From Anaerolineae bacterium (GTDB lineage Bacteria > Chloroflexota > Anaerolineae > S140-20), in assembly GCA_027021705.1 (NCBI GenBank), contig JALUTT010000003.1, forward strand, positions 1-64,000: a DNA stretch of 64,000 nt, read 5' to 3'. Position 1 is the first letter of the stretch, and every line of letters begins with the position of its first letter. Shown here piece after piece: positions 14,601 through 26,600 of the stretch. A program made the position numbers.

Positions 14601-17600
14601 CAAGGAGGGCGACGAGGTCTGGGTCAGCGTCTGGGGGCGGAAGGACGAGCCGGGCAAGACGGGGGAGATCGTGATCTACGATGACAAGACCCTCGAAGAA
14701 AAAGCCCGGATTAAGGACCTGATCACCCCCACCGGCAAGTTCAACGTCTACAACACAATGAATGACATCTACTAATCCCGTCTCGGGGTGACGCGCCCTC
14801 CGAGGCGCGTCGCCCCCCCCTTCACCCCCGCTCGCGTGAACAGTCAAGGTCAAGGAGGGAGGAGGGGACCGTCAGGGCAGGTGGGGGTGAGCTCGTAGAG
14901 CTCGCCCCTACCGCCCATTCCGCTCTGATCCGCATTCCAAACGGTCAAGGAAGGAGGTGTCATCCATGAGCAGCCACAATGAAGAACCGAAGGGACGAAT
15001 CCCCATCGGACAGATCGTCTTCGACGAGATCTTCCTACTCTTCATGCTCTCCCTGGTCATCAGCTTCATCCTGTACAACGTCTGGGGATTGATGGAACTC
15101 CTCCGCGTCCCCTTCCTCCCCTAACCGGGGAGCCTCGATCGTCCTCGGTGGACGGATCGTCCCGTCAGTGCTCGCACTCCACAGCCCATCGGAAAGGAGG
15201 TCACTATGCTTGCCCCACCACGAATTTGGTGGAAACCTCTGGATCGCCTGGAGCGCAGTTGGCTGACCATCGCCTTCGTCTGGTGCATCTTCCTGACGGC
15301 GATGATGCCGATCTGGTTCTTCCTGGGCCGTCAGAACGTGCCGGCCACCACCTACCGGGTCTCGCCGGAAGAGTACCAGCAGCGTGTTGCGGACTTTATC
15401 GAACAGTATCAGGTGGGAACCGAGAAGGGCGTCCCCGTGGTCGCTCCGCCCCCCGGCGACGTCTTCCTGCTGGCCCGCCAGTGGCAGTGGTACCCCATCC
15501 TGCAACTGAAGAAGGGCCAGACCTACCGCCTGCACGTCTCCTCGATAGACATCCAACACGGTTTCTCCATCCAACCGCTGAACCTCAACTTCATGGTCCT
15601 GCCCGGCTACGACTACGTCATCACCCTGACACCCACCCAGAGCGGCGAGTTCTCCCTGGTGTGCAATGAGTACTGCGGCATCGCCCACCACCTGATGGTG
15701 AGCAAGCTGATCGTAACCGACTAGCCTATCCAGCCAAGTTAAGGAGGAAACAGCGATGGCGGCTGAAGCCATTCCCTGGTCCGAAGAGAAAGCCGTCTTC
15801 CGCACCTGCCCGGTGACGGGACTGAAGGTAGACCTGGCCGCTGAACGGCTTATCATCGCCAATGCGGTGGCTGCCGTGGTCTTCCTGCTGATCGGCGGCA
15901 TCTTCGCCCTTCTGCTGGCGCTAACCCGCTGGCAGGTGATCCACCTGCTTCCCCCCGACTGGTTCTACCGCATCCTCACCGCCCACGGCATTGACATGCT
16001 GGTGGCCTGGATCGTTTTCTTCGAGATCGCCGGCCTCTACTTCGGGGGCGCGGTGATGCTGAACGCCCGTCTGGTCCGCCCCTCGCTGGCATGGCTCGCC
16101 TTCGCCCTGATGATCGTGGGATCGGTGCTCATCAACGTCATCGTCCTGATGGGCAAGGCGGACGTCATGTTCACCGCCTACGTTCCCCTGAAGGCCCACC
16201 CCGTCTTCTACTTGGGCTACATCCTCTTCGCCGTCGGGGCCTTGCTGGCGCTGGGGCTCTTCTTCGCCACCATCGTGGTCGCCAAGGCCGAAAAACGGTA
16301 CGAGGGTTCCCTCCCCCTCGTCGTCTACGGCCTGGTGACGGCGGCCATCATCGCCGCCTACACCCTGCTCTCGGGGGCCTTGGCCCTGGTTCCCGCCTTC
16401 TTCTGGTCGCTGGGCCTGCTGCCCAATTACGACCCGGGGTTCTACCGTAACCTCTTCTGGAGCTTCGGCCACCCGGCCCAGCAGATCAACCTGGCCGCGA
16501 TGGTCGCCATCTGGTACGCTCTGGCGGCCATCACCACAGGAGCCACGCCCCTCAACGAGAAGCTCTCCCGTTTCGCCTTCATCCTGTACATCCTGTTCAT
16601 CAACCTGGGCTCGGCCCATCACCTGCTGGTGGACCCCGGTCCGGGATTCGCCTGGAAGGTCACCAACACCTCCTACGCGATGTACCTGGCCGTGCTGGGC
16701 AGCATGATCCACGCCTTCTCCGTCCCGGCCGCAATGGAGGTGGCCCTACGTCGCCAGGGATACCGCCGAGGGTTGCTGGAGTGGCTGCGCAAAGCCCCCT
16801 GGCGGGAGCCCGGCTTCTCGGCTCTGGTGATTTCCATCGTCATCTTCGGCTGGATCGGTGGGGTGACCGGCGTGACCATCGGCACCGAGCAGATCAACAT
16901 GCTGGCCCACAACACGCTGCGGGTGCCCGGCCACTTCCACGCCACCGTCGTGGCAGGGACCACCCTCGCCTTCATGGGCCTGACCTACTACCTCATCCCC
17001 CTCATCTTCCGCCGCGAGCTGAAGCTGAAGCGCTGGGCCACCTGGCAGCCCTACATCTTCGGCCTGGGCATGGCCCTGGTCTCCATCGGTTTCATCGCCG
17101 CCGGCATCCAGGGGGTGGCCCGCCGCCACTGGGACATCACCTTCGCCCAGGCTCCCTTCCCGGCCACCATCCCCGGCACGGTGCACCTGGCTCTGGCCGT
17201 CCTGGGCATCGGCGCTCTGATCGCCGTCGTGGGCGGTGCGATGTTCCTCATCATCGTCCTCGTCTCCGTGTTCACGGGGAAGCGGCAGGAAGCGCGGGGG
17301 CTGTTGCTCGTCGTCACCCCCTCCAGCCCCCCGGCACCCTCCACCTCCGCCGAGGAGGGGGAAGAGGGCCTACGCCCCAAGGGCACCTTCGTCCTCGTCC
17401 TCGCCTTCCTGACCTTCTTCGCCGCTTACTACCTGAGCAACTGGTGGCTACTGGGTCGTACCTGGATCGTCCGCTGACGTGTCCCCCTCCCGCAGGTCAT
17501 CTGGCGTGAGGAGAACCTGCGGGAGGGTCCTTGGGAAACCGGGGGAAACAAGGGATGGTCGTCGCGTTCCTGCTGGGACTACTGGGGAGTCTGGGACACT

Positions 17601-23600: not shown

Positions 23601-26600
23601 GGTCGTGTCCGAACTCTGCTCTACGACGAAGAGGGAGCGGTCTTCCACCTGCACTGAGCGCCGCACCCGGCTCAGGCCGCCAGACCATCGAGTCGTTGAA
23701 GGTGGAGCCCCCATCGGCCCAGCATGCTGGCATCCATCCGGCGCAGGCCGGGGAAAGGTGGAAAGCACGATGACTTTTGAGCACGATCTGGTGGAATCAG
23801 GAGAGGTGCTGCCGGTGGCGGCGATCGCCCCGCCCAAGGCCGGGAGAGCCACTTCTCTCCTCCTCTGGCTGCGGGCGCTCCCCACCCTCTGCAAGCTGCG
23901 CGTCGTCGCCCTGTTGCTCTTCGCCGCAACGGGAGGGGCCCTCCTGGGGGCCGGTGGCTGGCCGGGGCTGGGGCGGATGCTGGTGCTCCTGGTGACAGGA
24001 GGGATGGCCGCCTCGGGAGCCTCGGCTCTGAACCAGTACTTGGAGCAGGAGACCGACGCCCGGATGACCCGCACCCGCCGGCGACCGCTGGTGGTGGGCG
24101 TCATCCCCCAGCCTGACCGGGTGCCCTACGTGGCGGGCGCGATGATCCTGGTGCCCTCCCTGGCGGTGCTCCCCTTCAACCCCGCCCTGACCTTCTTCTT
24201 GCTGTTGGGCGCTGCCATCTATCTAGGCGTCTACACCCTTTGGTTGAAACCGCGCACCCTGTTGAACATCGTCATCGGGGGGGCGGCGGGGAGCGCCGCT
24301 GTGCTTAGCGGAAGCGCAGCCGCCGGCGCGTGGAACGAGCCGGGAGCCGTGGCGCTGGCTCTGTTGGTCTTCCTGTGGACCCCCACCCACTTCTGGAGCC
24401 TGGCCATCGTCTACCGCCACGACTACGCCCGGGGGGGTATTCCGATGCTGCCCCTGCAGACCAGTCCGCGTGCCGCTGCCTTCTGGGTGCTGGTGCACAC
24501 CGGGGCCACGGCGTTGGCGGCCCTGATGCTGGCCGGACACCCGGCCCTGGGGTGGCTCTACCTAGTCCCCGTCGCCGTCGCCAGCGCCGACCTGGTGGTC
24601 CGCAACGCCCGGCTGCTGCGCCACCCCAACGGGCGCGAGGCCCTGTCCCTCTTCAAGGCGTCCAACTTCTACCTGGCCCTGGTGCTGCTGATGATCTGGG
24701 TGGACACCCTGCTTGGGTAACCACAACCCACCTCTAGTTGCCTGACCGTTGTCACCCTCCCGTAGATCACGGGGGAACCTGCGGGAGGGTCCAACCCAAG
24801 AACGATACCGCGAAGGAGAGGTTCCAATGGCTGTCTCTACAATGGATCGGACAAAGCCCCTCGTGGGGCGACAATCGCTGCCCCTCCTGGCCCTCTCGAC
24901 GCTGATCAGCACGATCCTGCTGGTGGCGATGGGCAGCATTGTGCGGGTCACCGGCTACGGCCTGGGCTGCCCCGACTGGCCCCTCTGCTACGGACGGGTC
25001 ATCCCGCCGGCCCTGACCGGGGCCTGGATGGAGTTCACCCACCGCCTTATCGGAGCTGCGACCAGCCTCCAGATCGTCCTCCTGGGGGTGCTGGCCTGGC
25101 GTCGCTACCGGAACCGCCCCTGGATCTTCCGTCCGGCGGTGGCCGCCGTCGGCCTGCTGGTCATCCAAGCGGTTCTGGGGGGGCTGCACGTCATCTTCGA
25201 AATCCCGCCTCTCACCGGCTGGATCCACACCGCCCTGGCGATGCTGATCGTGGGGCTGGTGGCCATTCCGCTGGCCCACGCCTCACCGGCGCTCCCGGCC
25301 ATCCGGGGAAGAGGGGAGGAAGCCTCCCCCAGCAGGGCCTTCGTTGCCTGGGTCTCGGGGACGGCGGTGGCTACCTACCTGCTCCTGCTCACCGGCTCCT
25401 ACGTAACCCGCAGCGGTGCCTCCCTCGCCTGCCCATCCTTCCCCCTCTGCGGGGTCCCCGTCGAAAACTCACTGACGCTGATCCAGATGCTCCACCGCTA
25501 CGTGGCCTTCGGCGTCGCCTTCCTGGCTTTGGTGCTGGTCGCCTGGTTGGTGATCGGGCAGACGGACCGGCGGCTGGTGCGCCTGGCCTACGGTCTGGGA
25601 GCCCTGCTCCTCGTCCAGTTTGGGCTGGGCATCGCCAACGTGCTGCTCCGCCTGCCGATGTGGACCCGGGTCCTGCACCTGACCGTCGCAGCCGCCTTCT
25701 GGGCCGGCGTGGTGCTGATCTGGAGCCTCTGCTGGGCTCCCGACAAAGGGTAGGATAGGGCGACAAGCAGGCCGAGGACGAAAGAGGGCGCGGAGTCTCC
25801 TCCGCGCCCTCTTTCGTCTCTCCCTCCGATGGGGTTGAAGGTCAGTGCCCTTCCCGTCTCTCCAGGGCCCGATAGAGGATCAAGTACATCGCGTGGGACC
25901 AGAGGAGGGGTTTGGCCACCGGCCCCCAACGGGCTTCCCACTCCGAGTAGTGGGCAGGGGCCAGCAGATGGGTGGAGACCTGCTCCGGCAGGTTCCCCTC
26001 CGGGTCGGCCTGGGCCTCGATCCAGCGCAGGAGTGTCTGGGCCCGCTCGCGCTCTCCCGCTTCCACGTAGTACCAACCCAGCCAGCCGGCCAGCAGGACC
26101 CACTCGCCCCCGCCGTAGTAGGTGTCGGCCCGGTAGCGGTGCACGCCGCCGCCCTCGCAGTGCAGCTCGGCCTCGATCCGCGCAGCGGTGGCCTGCATCA
26201 AGGGATCGGTGGGCGAGAGCAGGCGATGAGGGGTGGAGACGCCGATGAGGCTGGCATCCACAGCCGTGGTCAGATCGTCATCAAGGGTCGCCTCCTGCTC
26301 CGGTGGGCAGATCTGCTTGACCAGATGCCCGTCCCGCACGCCGTGGGTCAGCACGAAGCGGTGAACCTCGTCGGCCGTGGCCTGACCATCCAGGTTGAAC
26401 ACCCCCACAGCTCTGGCCGCCTGCAGGCCGGCGTAGATGGCGGATAGGGTGTAGGGGTGCAGGTATTGGGGATGCTCTTCCCACAGGTCGTAGCAAGGGT
26501 AGGCCCAGAGCGCGGCCAGATAGCGGGCTGTGAGCTTCACCGCCTCGCGCCAGGAGGATGGCAGGGTGTACGGATTATCCCCCCGCCGCCGGACGTGCGC

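Follow-up and report, generated by a model that had tools for sequence, protein, structure and literature searches.

Genomic organization of the locus

The window (the whole analyzed stretch of 64,000 nucleotides) hosts at positions 12664-25753 a gene cluster which, based on ORF and Pfam annotation, reaches from a C1-C2-NirS gene to ctaA and comprises a putative eNOR together with g00100, a 702-aa cytochrome b fusion protein. According to Pfam, the order is nirS, a COX2-like gene, COX1, DsbD_2, CopA, two minus-strand ORFs, g00100, UbiA/ctaB, and COX15/ctaA. This gene order, the ORF coordinates, and the Pfam hits of g00100 were all reproduced from an initial annotation of the locus.

8979..11889, plus strand: two-component system 5' of nirS (sensor kinase 8979-11231; response regulator ORF 11059-11889)
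12664..14775, plus strand: NirS (Pfam Cytochrom_D1 308-698, Cytochrome_CBB3 199-271)
15206..15724, plus strand: putative eNOR subunit II, g00094 (Pfam COX2; complete CuA site)
15756..17477, plus strand: putative eNOR subunit I, g00095 (Pfam COX1, 1.4e-67)
17531..18265, plus strand: DsbD_2 membrane protein (Pfam PF13386, 1.1e-39)
17881..20694 (ORF as listed), plus strand: CopA-type Cu P-type ATPase (Pfam E1-E2_ATPase, Hydrolase, HMA)
20633..21522, minus strand: TumE toxin and TumA-like antitoxin cassette between copA and g00100
21549-23657, plus strand: g00100, 702 aa (Pfam Cytochrome_B 43-165, Fer4_7 307-355, FlpD 439-489)
21549-22193, plus strand: g00100 residues 1-215, four-helix two-haem cytochrome b (Pfam PF00033)
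22194..22433, plus strand: g00100 residues 216-295, two further helices and a conserved outward loop (alignments A1, A7)
22446..22616, plus strand: g00100 residues 300-356, 2x[4Fe-4S] ferredoxin domain (Pfam Fer4 families)
22701..23078, plus strand: g00100 residues 385-510, MvhD/FlpD-like domain (Pfam FlpD; C393, C442, C467, C472)
23181..23654, plus strand: g00100 residues 545-702, one helix and an outward domain of ~130 residues, no known family
23551-24720 (ORF), plus strand: ctaB, haem O synthase (Pfam UbiA, 3.2e-43)
24749-25753, plus strand: ctaA, haem A synthase (Pfam COX15-CtaA, 5.8e-37)

The two-component pair carries the Pfam domains HATPase_c/HisKA/HAMP/PAS/Cache and Response_reg/Trans_reg_C, respectively, and an equivalent pair is also located 5' of nirS-eNOR in the related locus L010. 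The true start of copA probably follows the DsbD_2 stop, and that of ctaB probably lies after 23657. In relatives, copA and the fusion gene are separated by a gap of ~100 nt, into which the TumE/TumA cassette is inserted here, with the G+C content falling to 0.61-0.66 in this region. The toxin ORF (20633-21031) matches Pfam TumE at 1.9e-23; the antitoxin ORF (21028-21522), which likely starts at the ATG near 21366, matches NCBIfam TumA at 4.5e-8, being under the family cut-off.

NirS and a haem-copper enzyme of the eNOR type

Translation of nirS revealed an N-terminus resembling that of lipoproteins and, ahead of the d1 domain, two motifs for c-type haem (GGCGACH, RCSGCH), a C1-C2-NirS architecture described before (PMC8756737). 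The CuA subunit g00094 retains CNEYCGIAHHLM, as already noted in the initial annotation, and its ligands H118, C153, E155, C157, H161, and M164 are invariant in an alignment of 23 sequences (A4). Subunit I has B-family oxidases as nearest solved structures (E about 1e-41 to 1e-43), and its six His ligands (H77, H239, H288, H289, H393, H395) are invariant in alignment A5. The HPxVY motif of oxygen reductases, previously reported to be missing from g00095, is indeed replaced by FGHPAQQ, with Gln at the position of the cross-link Tyr. This Gln in combination with the CuA subunit supports the assignment of g00095 as a predicted eNOR-type enzyme. Of the earlier proposal of a candidate NOR of the eNOR/sNOR kind, the eNOR part was retained and the sNOR part dropped, because sNOR has Asn at this position (Table A4, PMC8756737). 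An A-family COX1 is present elsewhere in the genome (contig C152).

Domain architecture of g00100

The cofactor-binding residues of g00100, its topology logic and its gene linkage can be regarded as established, and the protein is predicted to be a seven-helix membrane protein. Conservation was evaluated in alignments of 30 close sequences (A1), 26 diverse sequences (A3), and 150 representatives (A2), the fusion family amounting to 575 clusters (50% identity) in a profile search at E<=1e-30. The match of the family profile extends over the whole of cytochrome b6 (E 3e-41). Both the four haem ligands of the cytochrome b part (His95, His109, His192, His206) and the eight Cys of the ferredoxin domain (C307, C310, C313, C317; C344, C347, C350, C354) show no variation in A1 or A3, and conservation of at least 90% in A2. 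Within the outward loop, PAD...LDHWYLGF, D256 is invariant and D245 nearly invariant (A1, A7). The region is presumed to represent that of the Qo motif; as a profile of this stretch matched no solved cytochrome b, the assignment relies on a 2014 paper which, in its accessible part, assigns the Qo motif 'PDWF' to a clade termed PDWF-FeS (PMC4122944).

Positions 388-513 of the family profile align with MvhD chains of solved structure over their full length (E about 1e-15). All four Cys of this domain are gone in eight of 30 close relatives (L009, L011-L015, L017, L019), which have retained eNOR, thus indicating that the third cluster is dispensable in these relatives.

The C-terminal tail had no match in Pfam or PDB. 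It shares 24% identity over 123 residues (E 9e-11) with a 168-aa ORF following a short fusion gene in L098, and stand-alone look-alikes of 160-183 aa were found in Atlas, the tail domain being encoded as its own gene in some lineages. Two Cys are conserved in the stand-alone forms. Eight of the 18 longest representatives (picked for a length of at least 737 aa), plus the relative in L056, end in a cytochrome c domain. These cytochrome c ends, together with the Cys of the stand-alone tails, suggest that the C-terminus of g00100 faces outward.

Comparison with known systems

In respect to cytochrome b6/b of the b6f and bc1 complexes, g00100 shares the four-helix core, the four His, and the cd-loop motif GYWLVWDQ. 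It differs by the lack of a Rieske protein and of cytochrome c1/f, and its inward end leads to Fe-S clusters instead of a Qi site. Since no Rieske protein accompanies g00100, it is not a member of a Rieske-cytochrome b complex. In the SoxABCD-type quinol oxidase of Sulfolobus, the cytochrome b homologue SoxC is encoded and complexed with haem-copper subunits. Like SoxC, g00100 is a cytochrome b homologue encoded with such subunits, and in NCBIfam, SoxC is a weak match of g00100 (2e-6) and SoxA one of subunit II (6.8e-4), both below cut-off; however, SoxC has neither an Fe-S nor an MvhD arm, and the complex is demonstrated for Sox but would be hypothetical for g00100. With the Mvh-Hdr system, g00100 has in common the full-length MvhD homology including four Cys, next to a ferredoxin domain resembling the C-terminal ferredoxin of HdrA. 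In contrast to that system, its module is tethered to a membrane cytochrome and has lost the Cys in one subclade; neither a hydrogenase nor a heterodisulfide reductase was found near g00100.

The initial annotation had considered g00100 as undescribed. However, the same domain set, i.e., cytochrome b, a 4Fe-4S domain, and an MvhD domain, was named PDWF-FeS in 2014 (Kao & Hunte, PMC4122944), and similar genes appear in a preprint on Ferrigenium (bioRxiv 10.64898/2026.01.22.701106); the pairing of g00100 with eNOR is therefore already partly in print, as far as the available parts of both sources go. Judged by its sequence, g00100 is placed in this Rieske-less clade. Neither cluster contains a Rieske protein; g00100 differs in reading LDHW in place of PDWF, with the Asp retained. 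The accessible part of the 2014 paper does not tie the clade to haem-copper enzymes, nor does it mention an outward C-terminal domain. The eNOR operon of Ferrigenium straubiae, as given in the available preprint text, resembles the present cluster in that genes for eNOR II and I lead into those for assembly factors, for a 'scaffold protein of unknown function', and for cytochrome b/[Fe-S] proteins. Two of the latter were found along with eNOR subunits in the denitrifying proteome, and a supercomplex was proposed. Here, in contrast, the tail forms part of the cytochrome b protein itself, and the window is devoid of the cytochrome b-FAD-NADH paralogue; the 'scaffold' gene being a homologue of the g00100 tail is a guess. 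The same text calls these genes 'rather unusual' and offers them as Ferrigenium markers, whereas the family analyzed here adjoins eNOR or ba3 in many lineages.

Linkage to haem-copper enzymes

A contig scan returned again the 31 genome loci counted initially (27 Chloroflexota-type or unnamed, 2 Acidimicrobiia, 2 Nitrospirae). The loci originate from word-seeded searches ranked by g00100 likeness and do not represent a random sample; within this set, 25 of 31 carry CuA and subunit I upstream in the same orientation, and a contig end cuts four further loci. In L010, L022, L023, L030, and L031, the fusion is an immediate neighbor with no Cu genes in between. Six loci have no subunit I next to the fusion gene; in the genomes of three of them (L001, L025, L028), an eNOR subunit I is encoded on another contig (79-86% identity). 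Among metagenome loci with at least 2.5 kb upstream sequence, 43 of 46 have a co-oriented subunit I upstream, and the remaining three have an HCO-like gene downstream. Genome and metagenome loci thereby bear out the earlier claim that g00100-type genes travel with the eNOR-type oxidase in several phyla.

Typing of 46 upstream subunit I ORFs yielded 36 of the eNOR type (H..QQ), eight of the ba3 type (HPLVY), and two of an odd type, with no A- or C-family enzyme among them. A dedication of g00100 to this one oxidase family, as initially claimed, is too narrow, since relatives lie directly behind Tyr-bearing ba3-type oxygen reductases: five Chloroflexota genomes encode a paralogue (30-36% identity) immediately behind a ba3-like oxidase, and subunit I of L056 matches Thermus thermophilus ba3 at E about 1e-143. 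Nor did the role of a constant subunit hold. Scored in a profile search as a single ORF that carries both the cytochrome b and the FeS/MvhD part, the fusion is missing from 13 of 24 sampled eNOR-bearing Chloroflexota genomes, and is therefore dispensable for eNOR. In Nitrospirota, 2 of 16 lack it. For five of the 13 genomes, 99% complete, the cytochrome b region of the fusion profile found no match at E<=1e-5. The pairing of fusion and haem-copper enzyme is real and widespread, but not universal.

One alternative is an independent quinol-linked module with its own cytoplasmic substrate, which would be co-regulated with low-oxygen or NO respiration and have no contact to the haem-copper enzyme. 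In its favor, the fusion gene is apart from eNOR in L025 and L028, on a separate contig in G166, and on another contig or 18 kb off in several Nitrospirota genomes; NIR_SIR genes lie downstream in L104, and cytochrome b modules are reused within the present genome, e.g., beside a molybdopterin oxidoreductase on contig C2. We nevertheless consider this explanation very unlikely, as an HCO-type gene accompanies the fusion in all 46 well-flanked metagenome loci as well as 25 of 31 genome loci, a linkage across several phyla and two enzyme types that is tighter than usual co-regulation, and as eNOR is still held by all three checked genomes with an unlinked copy.

Neighboring assembly genes

In the majority of Chloroflexota loci, subunit I and the fusion gene are separated by DsbD_2 with CopA. 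Of the 25 linked genome loci, 20 have this pair ahead of the fusion gene, the fusion immediately follows copA in 24 of 31, and in L098 and L104 it is preceded by CtaB-Sco1 or Sco1. Because the gene usually stands behind assembly genes, a maturation role would fit too, with quinol-derived or cytoplasmic electrons serving a redox step in building B-family enzymes, the candidates being Cu(II) reduction ahead of Cu(I) export through CopA, and a redox step of CtaA from haem O to haem A. CcoG/FixG, involved in cbb3 oxidase assembly, is reported to be a cupric reductase that yields Cu(I); this membrane protein is encoded next to a Cu-ATPase gene, binds two [4Fe-4S] clusters, and has a small domain at its outward C-terminus. 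The overall layout of g00100, likewise encoded near a Cu-ATPase gene, recalls CcoG, and eight of 30 relatives, having lost the MvhD Cys, are left with exactly two clusters. Moreover, ctaB and ctaA come after g00100 in the window, CuA is common to both partner types (with haem As in eNOR), and eNOR genomes without the fusion are expected for a replaceable helper. On the other hand, CcoG has no cytochrome b, g00100 does not match FixG_C or the CcoG Pfam families (tail searched to E<=10), and a full cytochrome b of the respiratory type, invariant outward Asp included, exceeds the needs of a reductase. The outward fused cytochrome c of many relatives indicates periplasmic electron transfer. Furthermore, the gene was never found beside A-family oxidases (46 typed) despite their equal need for copper and haem A; no more than 4 of the 31 genome loci have ctaA nearby; and copA is missing from the Acidimicrobiia, Nitrospirae, and L010 loci. 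We therefore regard a function in maturation as unlikely.

Proposed role of g00100

Based on domain composition and linkage, we tentatively favor, at somewhat less than even chance, g00100 as an accessory redox module of the adjacent B-family-type haem-copper enzyme, here eNOR, which would link a cytoplasmic Fe-S chain to the quinol pool and to the outer side of the enzyme. The two b haems would span the membrane, with the acidic conserved loop facing outward at the place of the bc1/b6f Qo motif, the 2x[4Fe-4S] ferredoxin and the MvhD-like [2Fe-2S] domain on the cytoplasmic side, and the C-terminal domain on the outer side. Quinol may be oxidized at the outward site. One electron would leave outward, toward the CuA of eNOR; many relatives have a fused cytochrome c to carry it, and g00100 may dock through its C-terminal domain or rely on soluble carriers. 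The other would cross the membrane via the two haems to the Fe-S arm.

A reversed, inward-to-outward flow was considered as well, in which a cytoplasmic reductant feeds CuA via an MvhD-docked flavoprotein, the Fe-S clusters, and the two haems. If true, this would provide a quinone-independent supply for NO or O2 reduction, useful in NO detoxification. The ferredoxin and MvhD pair resembles the electron junction between Mvh and HdrA, a fused outer cytochrome c fits CuA delivery, and a Pyr_redox_2 flavoprotein is encoded two genes 3' of the fusion in L056. A cytochrome b-ferredoxin-FAD/NAD(P)H paralogue occurs in the same clade (PMC4122944) and in the Ferrigenium operon (bioRxiv 10.64898/2026.01.22.701106), according to the accessible parts of both. 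However, this direction leaves the conserved outward loop with its invariant Asp without a role, the MvhD Cys loss would sever the entry point, and the window lacks a gene for a flavoprotein partner, rendering it an improbable route. Against the favored accessory module stand the eNOR genomes devoid of the fusion, the MvhD Cys loss in eight of 30 close relatives, the usual position behind assembly genes, and the lack of any cytoplasmic partner for the MvhD domain encoded in the window. The same genome harbors another cytochrome b, fused to a cytochrome c, which could act as a conventional supplier of eNOR.

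Gene cluster organization

An ORF map combined with Pfam matches reproduced the plus-strand gene list of the initial annotation and placed the fusion gene g00100 within the following cluster.

Features of the cluster (position, strand, gene, source)
8979-11889, plus: sensor kinase and response regulator (ORF map, Pfam)
12070-12588, plus: small receiver-like ORF (NCBIfam matches below cut-off)
12664-14775, plus: NirS (ORF map, Pfam)
15206-15724, plus: COX2-like CuA subunit II, g00094 (Pfam)
15756-17477, plus: COX1-like haem-copper subunit I, g00095 (Pfam COX1, 1.4e-67)
17531-18265, plus: DsbD_2 protein (Pfam)
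ending at 20694, plus: CopA-type ATPase (Pfam)
20633-21548, minus: TumE toxin (Pfam, 1.9e-23) and TumA-like antitoxin (NCBIfam, below cut-off), between copA and g00100
21549-23657, plus: g00100 fusion (Pfam)
ending at 24720, plus: ctaB (Pfam)
24749-25753, plus: ctaA (Pfam)

The G+C content drops over the TumE/TumA region and the copA-to-fusion spacing in the genome loci of relatives amounts to only ~100 nt; the pair is therefore regarded as an inserted cassette. Short GGGGCAAGG and GAGGAC(T/C)GAGGACC repeats are located at ~21440-21500, immediately 5' of the g00100 start. A promoter and terminator scan of 11800-27200 returned counts no higher than in shuffled sequence. The remaining window ORFs belong to sugar metabolism and transport, and DNA nearly identical to the cluster is present in hydrothermal-vent metagenome runs, no RNA run being among the matches listed.

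Assignment of the haem-copper enzyme and of NirS

eNOR is a widespread enzyme producing N2O. Within the alignment of subunit I, the six His ligands of g00095 (H77, H239, H288, H289, H393, H395) are invariant, and its FGHPAQQ aligns with GHPLVY of the Tyr-bearing, ba3-like oxygen reductases, which places Gln where those enzymes have the cross-linked Tyr. The CuA ligands of g00094 (H118, C153, E155, C157, H161, M164) are likewise invariant in the subunit II alignment, and the site is complete. The closest solved relatives of g00095 are B-family oxidases; neither subunit had any NCBIfam match above cut-off. Gln at the cross-link Tyr position is described as the eNOR diagnostic, with Asn at the same position in sNOR (Schwartz et al. 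2022, PMC8756737, sections 2.7.1, 3.3 and Table A4). Based on the Gln motif, the His ligands and the CuA subunit, the g00095/g00094 pair is assigned as an eNOR; this narrows the earlier designation as a candidate of the eNOR/sNOR kind to its first half, as an sNOR would be expected to carry Asn.

Murali et al. (2024, PMC11214002) demonstrated NO reduction by the eNOR of Rhodothermus marinus (genome of strain DSM 4252), which in that account is the only eNOR with known biochemistry; they also count a Magnetospirillum enzyme as an eNOR. This enzyme holds haem As at both haem sites, and ctaA occurs in many eNOR operons (PMC11214002), so that ctaB-ctaA in the window fits an eNOR cluster. The R. 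marinus assays described there used artificial electron donors, and in the portions of the published eNOR descriptions that were compared the natural electron donor is not named.

The translated NirS carries two c-type haem motifs N-terminal to the d1 domain and, as judged from these motifs, has the C1-C2-NirS architecture of Schwartz et al. (PMC8756737). That study found no other denitrification genes neighbouring its C1-C2-NirS examples, and most of the genomes concerned seemed to be devoid of a nor gene. In the window (12664-17477) and in two related loci (L010, L021), C1-C2-NirS is encoded directly upstream of eNOR. Table A3 of the same paper also contains one deposited ORF combining a C1 cytochrome c with cytochrome b6, DMSOR_beta-like and FlpD domains, i.e., the fusion architecture bearing the cytochrome c type that is also fused to NirS.

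Anatomy and topology of the fusion protein

The haem-ligating His 95, 109, 192 and 206 of g00100 and its eight ferredoxin Cys are invariant or at least 90% conserved in alignments of 30 close, 26 diverse and 150 representative fusion sequences. Against solved structures, the fusion-family profile matched whole cytochrome b6 (E 3e-41) and full-length MvhD chains (E ~1e-15); NCBIfam gave no match above cut-off for g00100. The ferredoxin domain resembles the C-terminal ferredoxin of HdrA, and the MvhD-like domain has the four Cys expected for a [2Fe-2S] cluster (C393, C442, C467, C472). All four are replaced in eight of the 30 close sequences (L009, L011-L015, L017, L019; alignment columns ~410-520), which show the motifs FAS.., LPS.G and LSHPYDD. 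in their place. The haem His and the ferredoxin Cys persist in this subclade, as does the MvhD-like domain itself; whatever function is shared, it does not need the [2Fe-2S] cluster in this lineage.

Beyond the four-helix core, two extra hydrophobic stretches lie on either side of a conserved loop, PAD...LDHWYLGF, with an invariant D256. Kao and Hunte (2014, PMC4122944) treated this region as a PDWF-type Qo motif, at which g00100 reads LDHW. Our loop profile recovered no ef-loop homology and matched no solved structure; the Qo assignment therefore rests on the passages of that paper dealing with this motif. C-terminal to the MvhD-like domain follows one further hydrophobic stretch and then a domain of ~130 residues, here termed the tail.

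The N-terminus of cytochrome b faces inward. Counting helices from there, the Fe-S domains of g00100 would be cytoplasmic and the tail would lie outside, in agreement with three results on the tail. Firstly, a cytochrome c domain forms the C-terminus in eight of the 18 longest representatives (picked for length) and in the relative of metagenome locus L056. Secondly, L098 encodes the tail in a gene of its own (168 aa; 24% identity, E 9e-11) that follows a short fusion. Thirdly, the Atlas holds stand-alone tail look-alikes of 160-183 aa, besides proteins that join the tail to FlpD with or without Fer4. Searches of Pfam and PDB yielded no relative of the tail: with the Pfam threshold relaxed to E<=10, neither the tail nor residues 240-526 nor the loop matched a relevant family, and the tail profile gave a single chance match (E=2) to solved structures. 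A CcoG/FixG-like tail was rejected, since even at E<=10 the tail gave no match to the Pfam families of CcoG/FixG, such as the FixG C-terminal domain.

Based on this layout, we tentatively favor g00100 as an accessory redox module that would link a cytoplasmic Fe-S arm to quinol oxidation and to the outward side of eNOR. The conserved chain would lead from the outward loop via two haems and two [4Fe-4S] clusters to, usually, a [2Fe-2S] cluster, and the outward tail or cytochrome c would be added to it. Support for this module covers cofactor sites, topology logic and gene linkage, beyond which the mechanistic steps are offered as a proposal. The same inside-to-outside arrangement could also be read as a wire supplying electrons outward from a cytoplasmic reductant, which we consider unlikely.

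Linkage of the fusion to haem-copper enzymes

We retrieved 31 genome loci with g00100 and typed their neighbors by tblastn with the window proteins. CuA and subunit I genes are located upstream on the same strand in 25 of them. DsbD_2 and/or CopA intervene in 20 of these 25 linked loci, while in L010, L022, L023, L030 and L031 the fusion directly follows the oxidase subunits. Elsewhere, the contig ends inside copA (L004, L006, L026) or begins at ctaB (L001), and no oxidase is near the fusion in L025, which has a transposase immediately upstream, and L028. The genomes of L001, L025 and L028 each encode an eNOR subunit I on another contig. With such neighbors, g00100 might act in maturation, by copper reduction or haem A chemistry, a role of rather low probability in our estimation. 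The idea of a ctaA partner is weakened by the presence of ctaA near only four of the 31 genome loci.

A fusion-family profile search of 1.84 billion representatives yielded 575 clusters at E<=1e-30. For a metagenome scan seeded by one conserved peptide, the best 80 of 594 relatives were used and three of these loci were annotated by hand. Among these best 80, 46 loci had at least 2.5 kb upstream; subunit I lies upstream on the same strand in 43 (gaps of 51-3141 nt), and the other three have an HCO-like (haem-copper oxidase/reductase-like) gene downstream on the opposite strand. The 46 upstream subunit I ORFs typed, from 45 loci, comprise 36 of the eNOR type, eight of the HPLVY type and two of an odd type lacking the His-His pair; no A- or C-family enzyme was seen beside a fusion gene. 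The HPLVY type belongs to the true ba3-like oxidases (E ~1e-143 against T. thermophilus ba3). In five Chloroflexota genomes a fusion paralogue directly follows a ba3-like oxidase, and one of these (G019) has no eNOR-level match. The fusion is thus not dedicated to the NO-reducing family, as initially supposed. The conserved chain and the tie to CuA-bearing B-family enzymes, never beside A- or C-family ones, are the reasons for which the accessory redox module is favored.

Hand-annotated metagenome clusters
L056, 3619-15301, ba3-type: Rrf2 regulator, two Sco1, CuA, ba3 subunit I; 777-aa fusion ending in cytochrome c, 139-aa ORF, Pyr_redox_2 flavoprotein (weak SQR-like match); cytochrome bd I and II
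L104, 454-16580, eNOR: flanked by NnrS and ctaA (minus strand); 3' of the eNOR cluster, short fusion, 169-aa tail ORF, odd HCO-like gene, two NIR_SIR proteins, NosR-like protein

In L104, a hemerythrin-like frame overlaps the 3' end of the fusion gene. The odd HCO-like family, with a weak COX1 match, the motif GGH[IV][LM]QF and no CuB-site His-His pair, turns up repeatedly in the vicinity of fusion genes: in L030 (10695-12176), L031 (3940-5388 and 18679-20097) and L104 (10432-11796), as well as in L065, L076, L078, L083, L086, L097 and L128. It represents the only HCO-like gene seen in L065 and L078.

Occurrence of eNOR with and without the fusion

An eNOR-like subunit I of at least 51% identity was found in 24 of 401 Chloroflexota genomes, with Gln confirmed in 15 fetched loci and the window and the other eight genomes counted by identity alone. 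All 11 genomes with a subunit I of at least 68% identity hold a full-length fusion. It lies downstream on the same strand in nine of them; G210 has it in divergent orientation and G166 on a different contig. The 13 genomes with 51-63% identity showed no fusion within ~8 kb where the contig allows, and no ORF matching both the cytochrome b and the FeS/MvhD parts of the diverse-sequence profile. In Nitrospirota, 16 of 251 genomes have an eNOR-like subunit I and 14 of these 16 a fusion (E<1e-150), whose position varies between adjacent, divergent and on another contig. Some Nitrospirota matches cross one in-frame TAA, for subunit I in G401, G412, G425 and G550 and for the fusion in G416 and G425. 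As the subunit I match runs to residue ~572 and relatives end near 511, the extra C-terminal part may be encoded by its own small ORF in the same frame.

Taken together, loci and genome counts indicate that the fusion nearly always accompanies a B-family-type enzyme, whereas eNOR is not always accompanied by the fusion. An independent module, merely co-regulated with the enzyme, is the least probable of the roles considered. Conserved yet optional, the fusion is the obvious candidate for linking eNOR/ba3 with either the quinone pool or the cytoplasm, or else for maturing these enzymes.

Comparison with known systems

The architecture had been named before. The PDWF-FeS clade of Kao and Hunte (PMC4122944) was defined on cytochromes b with a 4Fe-4S domain and MvhD from Turneriella parva and Magnetospirillum magneticum (strain AMB-1, a cultivable organism), and also took in an Alicycliphilus protein in which cytochrome b is joined to ferredoxin and flavin domains, in a cluster devoid of Rieske. 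With this clade g00100 shares the four-His cytochrome b core and the fused non-Rieske Fe-S and MvhD domains; the account given of it there draws no link to haem-copper enzymes. A preprint on Ferrigenium straubiae (bioRxiv 10.64898/2026.01.22.701106) lists, in its portion on this operon, eNOR II, eNOR I, haem o synthase, sco1, a "scaffold protein of unknown function" and two "rather unusual" cytochrome b/[Fe-S] genes, with the proteins detected in the proteome, and it proposes a supercomplex and NAD+ reduction. A full-text literature search retrieved no further paper on the fusion-eNOR pairing. The supplements of Murali 2024 (PMC11214002) mention neither a cytochrome b/Fe-S partner nor gene neighborhood in the part compared, and the operon drawings of that paper may bear on this. 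The initial annotation holds as an observation and in part as an interpretation, its description of g00100 as undescribed being superseded: the protein joins a family that is known, though uncharacterised, as one more well-documented member, and adds no new kind of system.

In comparison with bc1/b6f, the g00100 cluster has neither a Rieske [2Fe-2S] subunit nor a c1/f-type acceptor; a Rieske family is absent from the Pfam matches of the 43 window ORFs scanned. The MvhD-like domain matches solved MvhD over its full length with four Cys present, and the hydrogenase or Hdr genes associated with MvhD/FlpD are absent from the window by Pfam. SoxABCD is an archaeal quinol oxidase that unites a cytochrome b homologue with haem-copper subunits. 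Archaeal quinol-oxidase supercomplexes, in which such a homologue and haem-copper subunits function within one complex, serve as a precedent (PMC4122944). Fusion and haem-copper enzyme might form one Rieske-less supercomplex with Qo-type quinol oxidation and a split of electrons, a quite improbable reading that is related to the idea put forward in the F. straubiae preprint (10.64898/2026.01.22.701106) for its FAD/NADH paralogue. One electron would pass via CuA to NO (or O2) and the other via the b haems across the membrane and the Fe-S arm to a low-potential cytoplasmic acceptor; if true, NO reduction would drive reverse electron flow within a single machine.

The interest lies in the open functional question rather than in novelty of the locus. 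Settling wiring versus maturation would alter energy-yield estimates for denitrification by these organisms, and a known role would extend the cytochrome b fold to a further use that needs no Rieske protein. To this the window contributes a Chloroflexota example, the exceptions with eNOR and no fusion, and a subclade that lacks the MvhD cluster as a natural "mutant"; all three are useful for experiment design.

The source genome encodes two further cytochrome b proteins of composite architecture: a 559-aa fusion of cytochrome b with a dihaem-type cytochrome c, adjoining a DUF4405 protein (contig C96, L132 3321-5000), and an 812-aa protein that has cytochrome b at its C-terminus and is encoded next to a molybdopterin oxidoreductase and a Fer4_11 protein (contig C2, L133 3826-8811).
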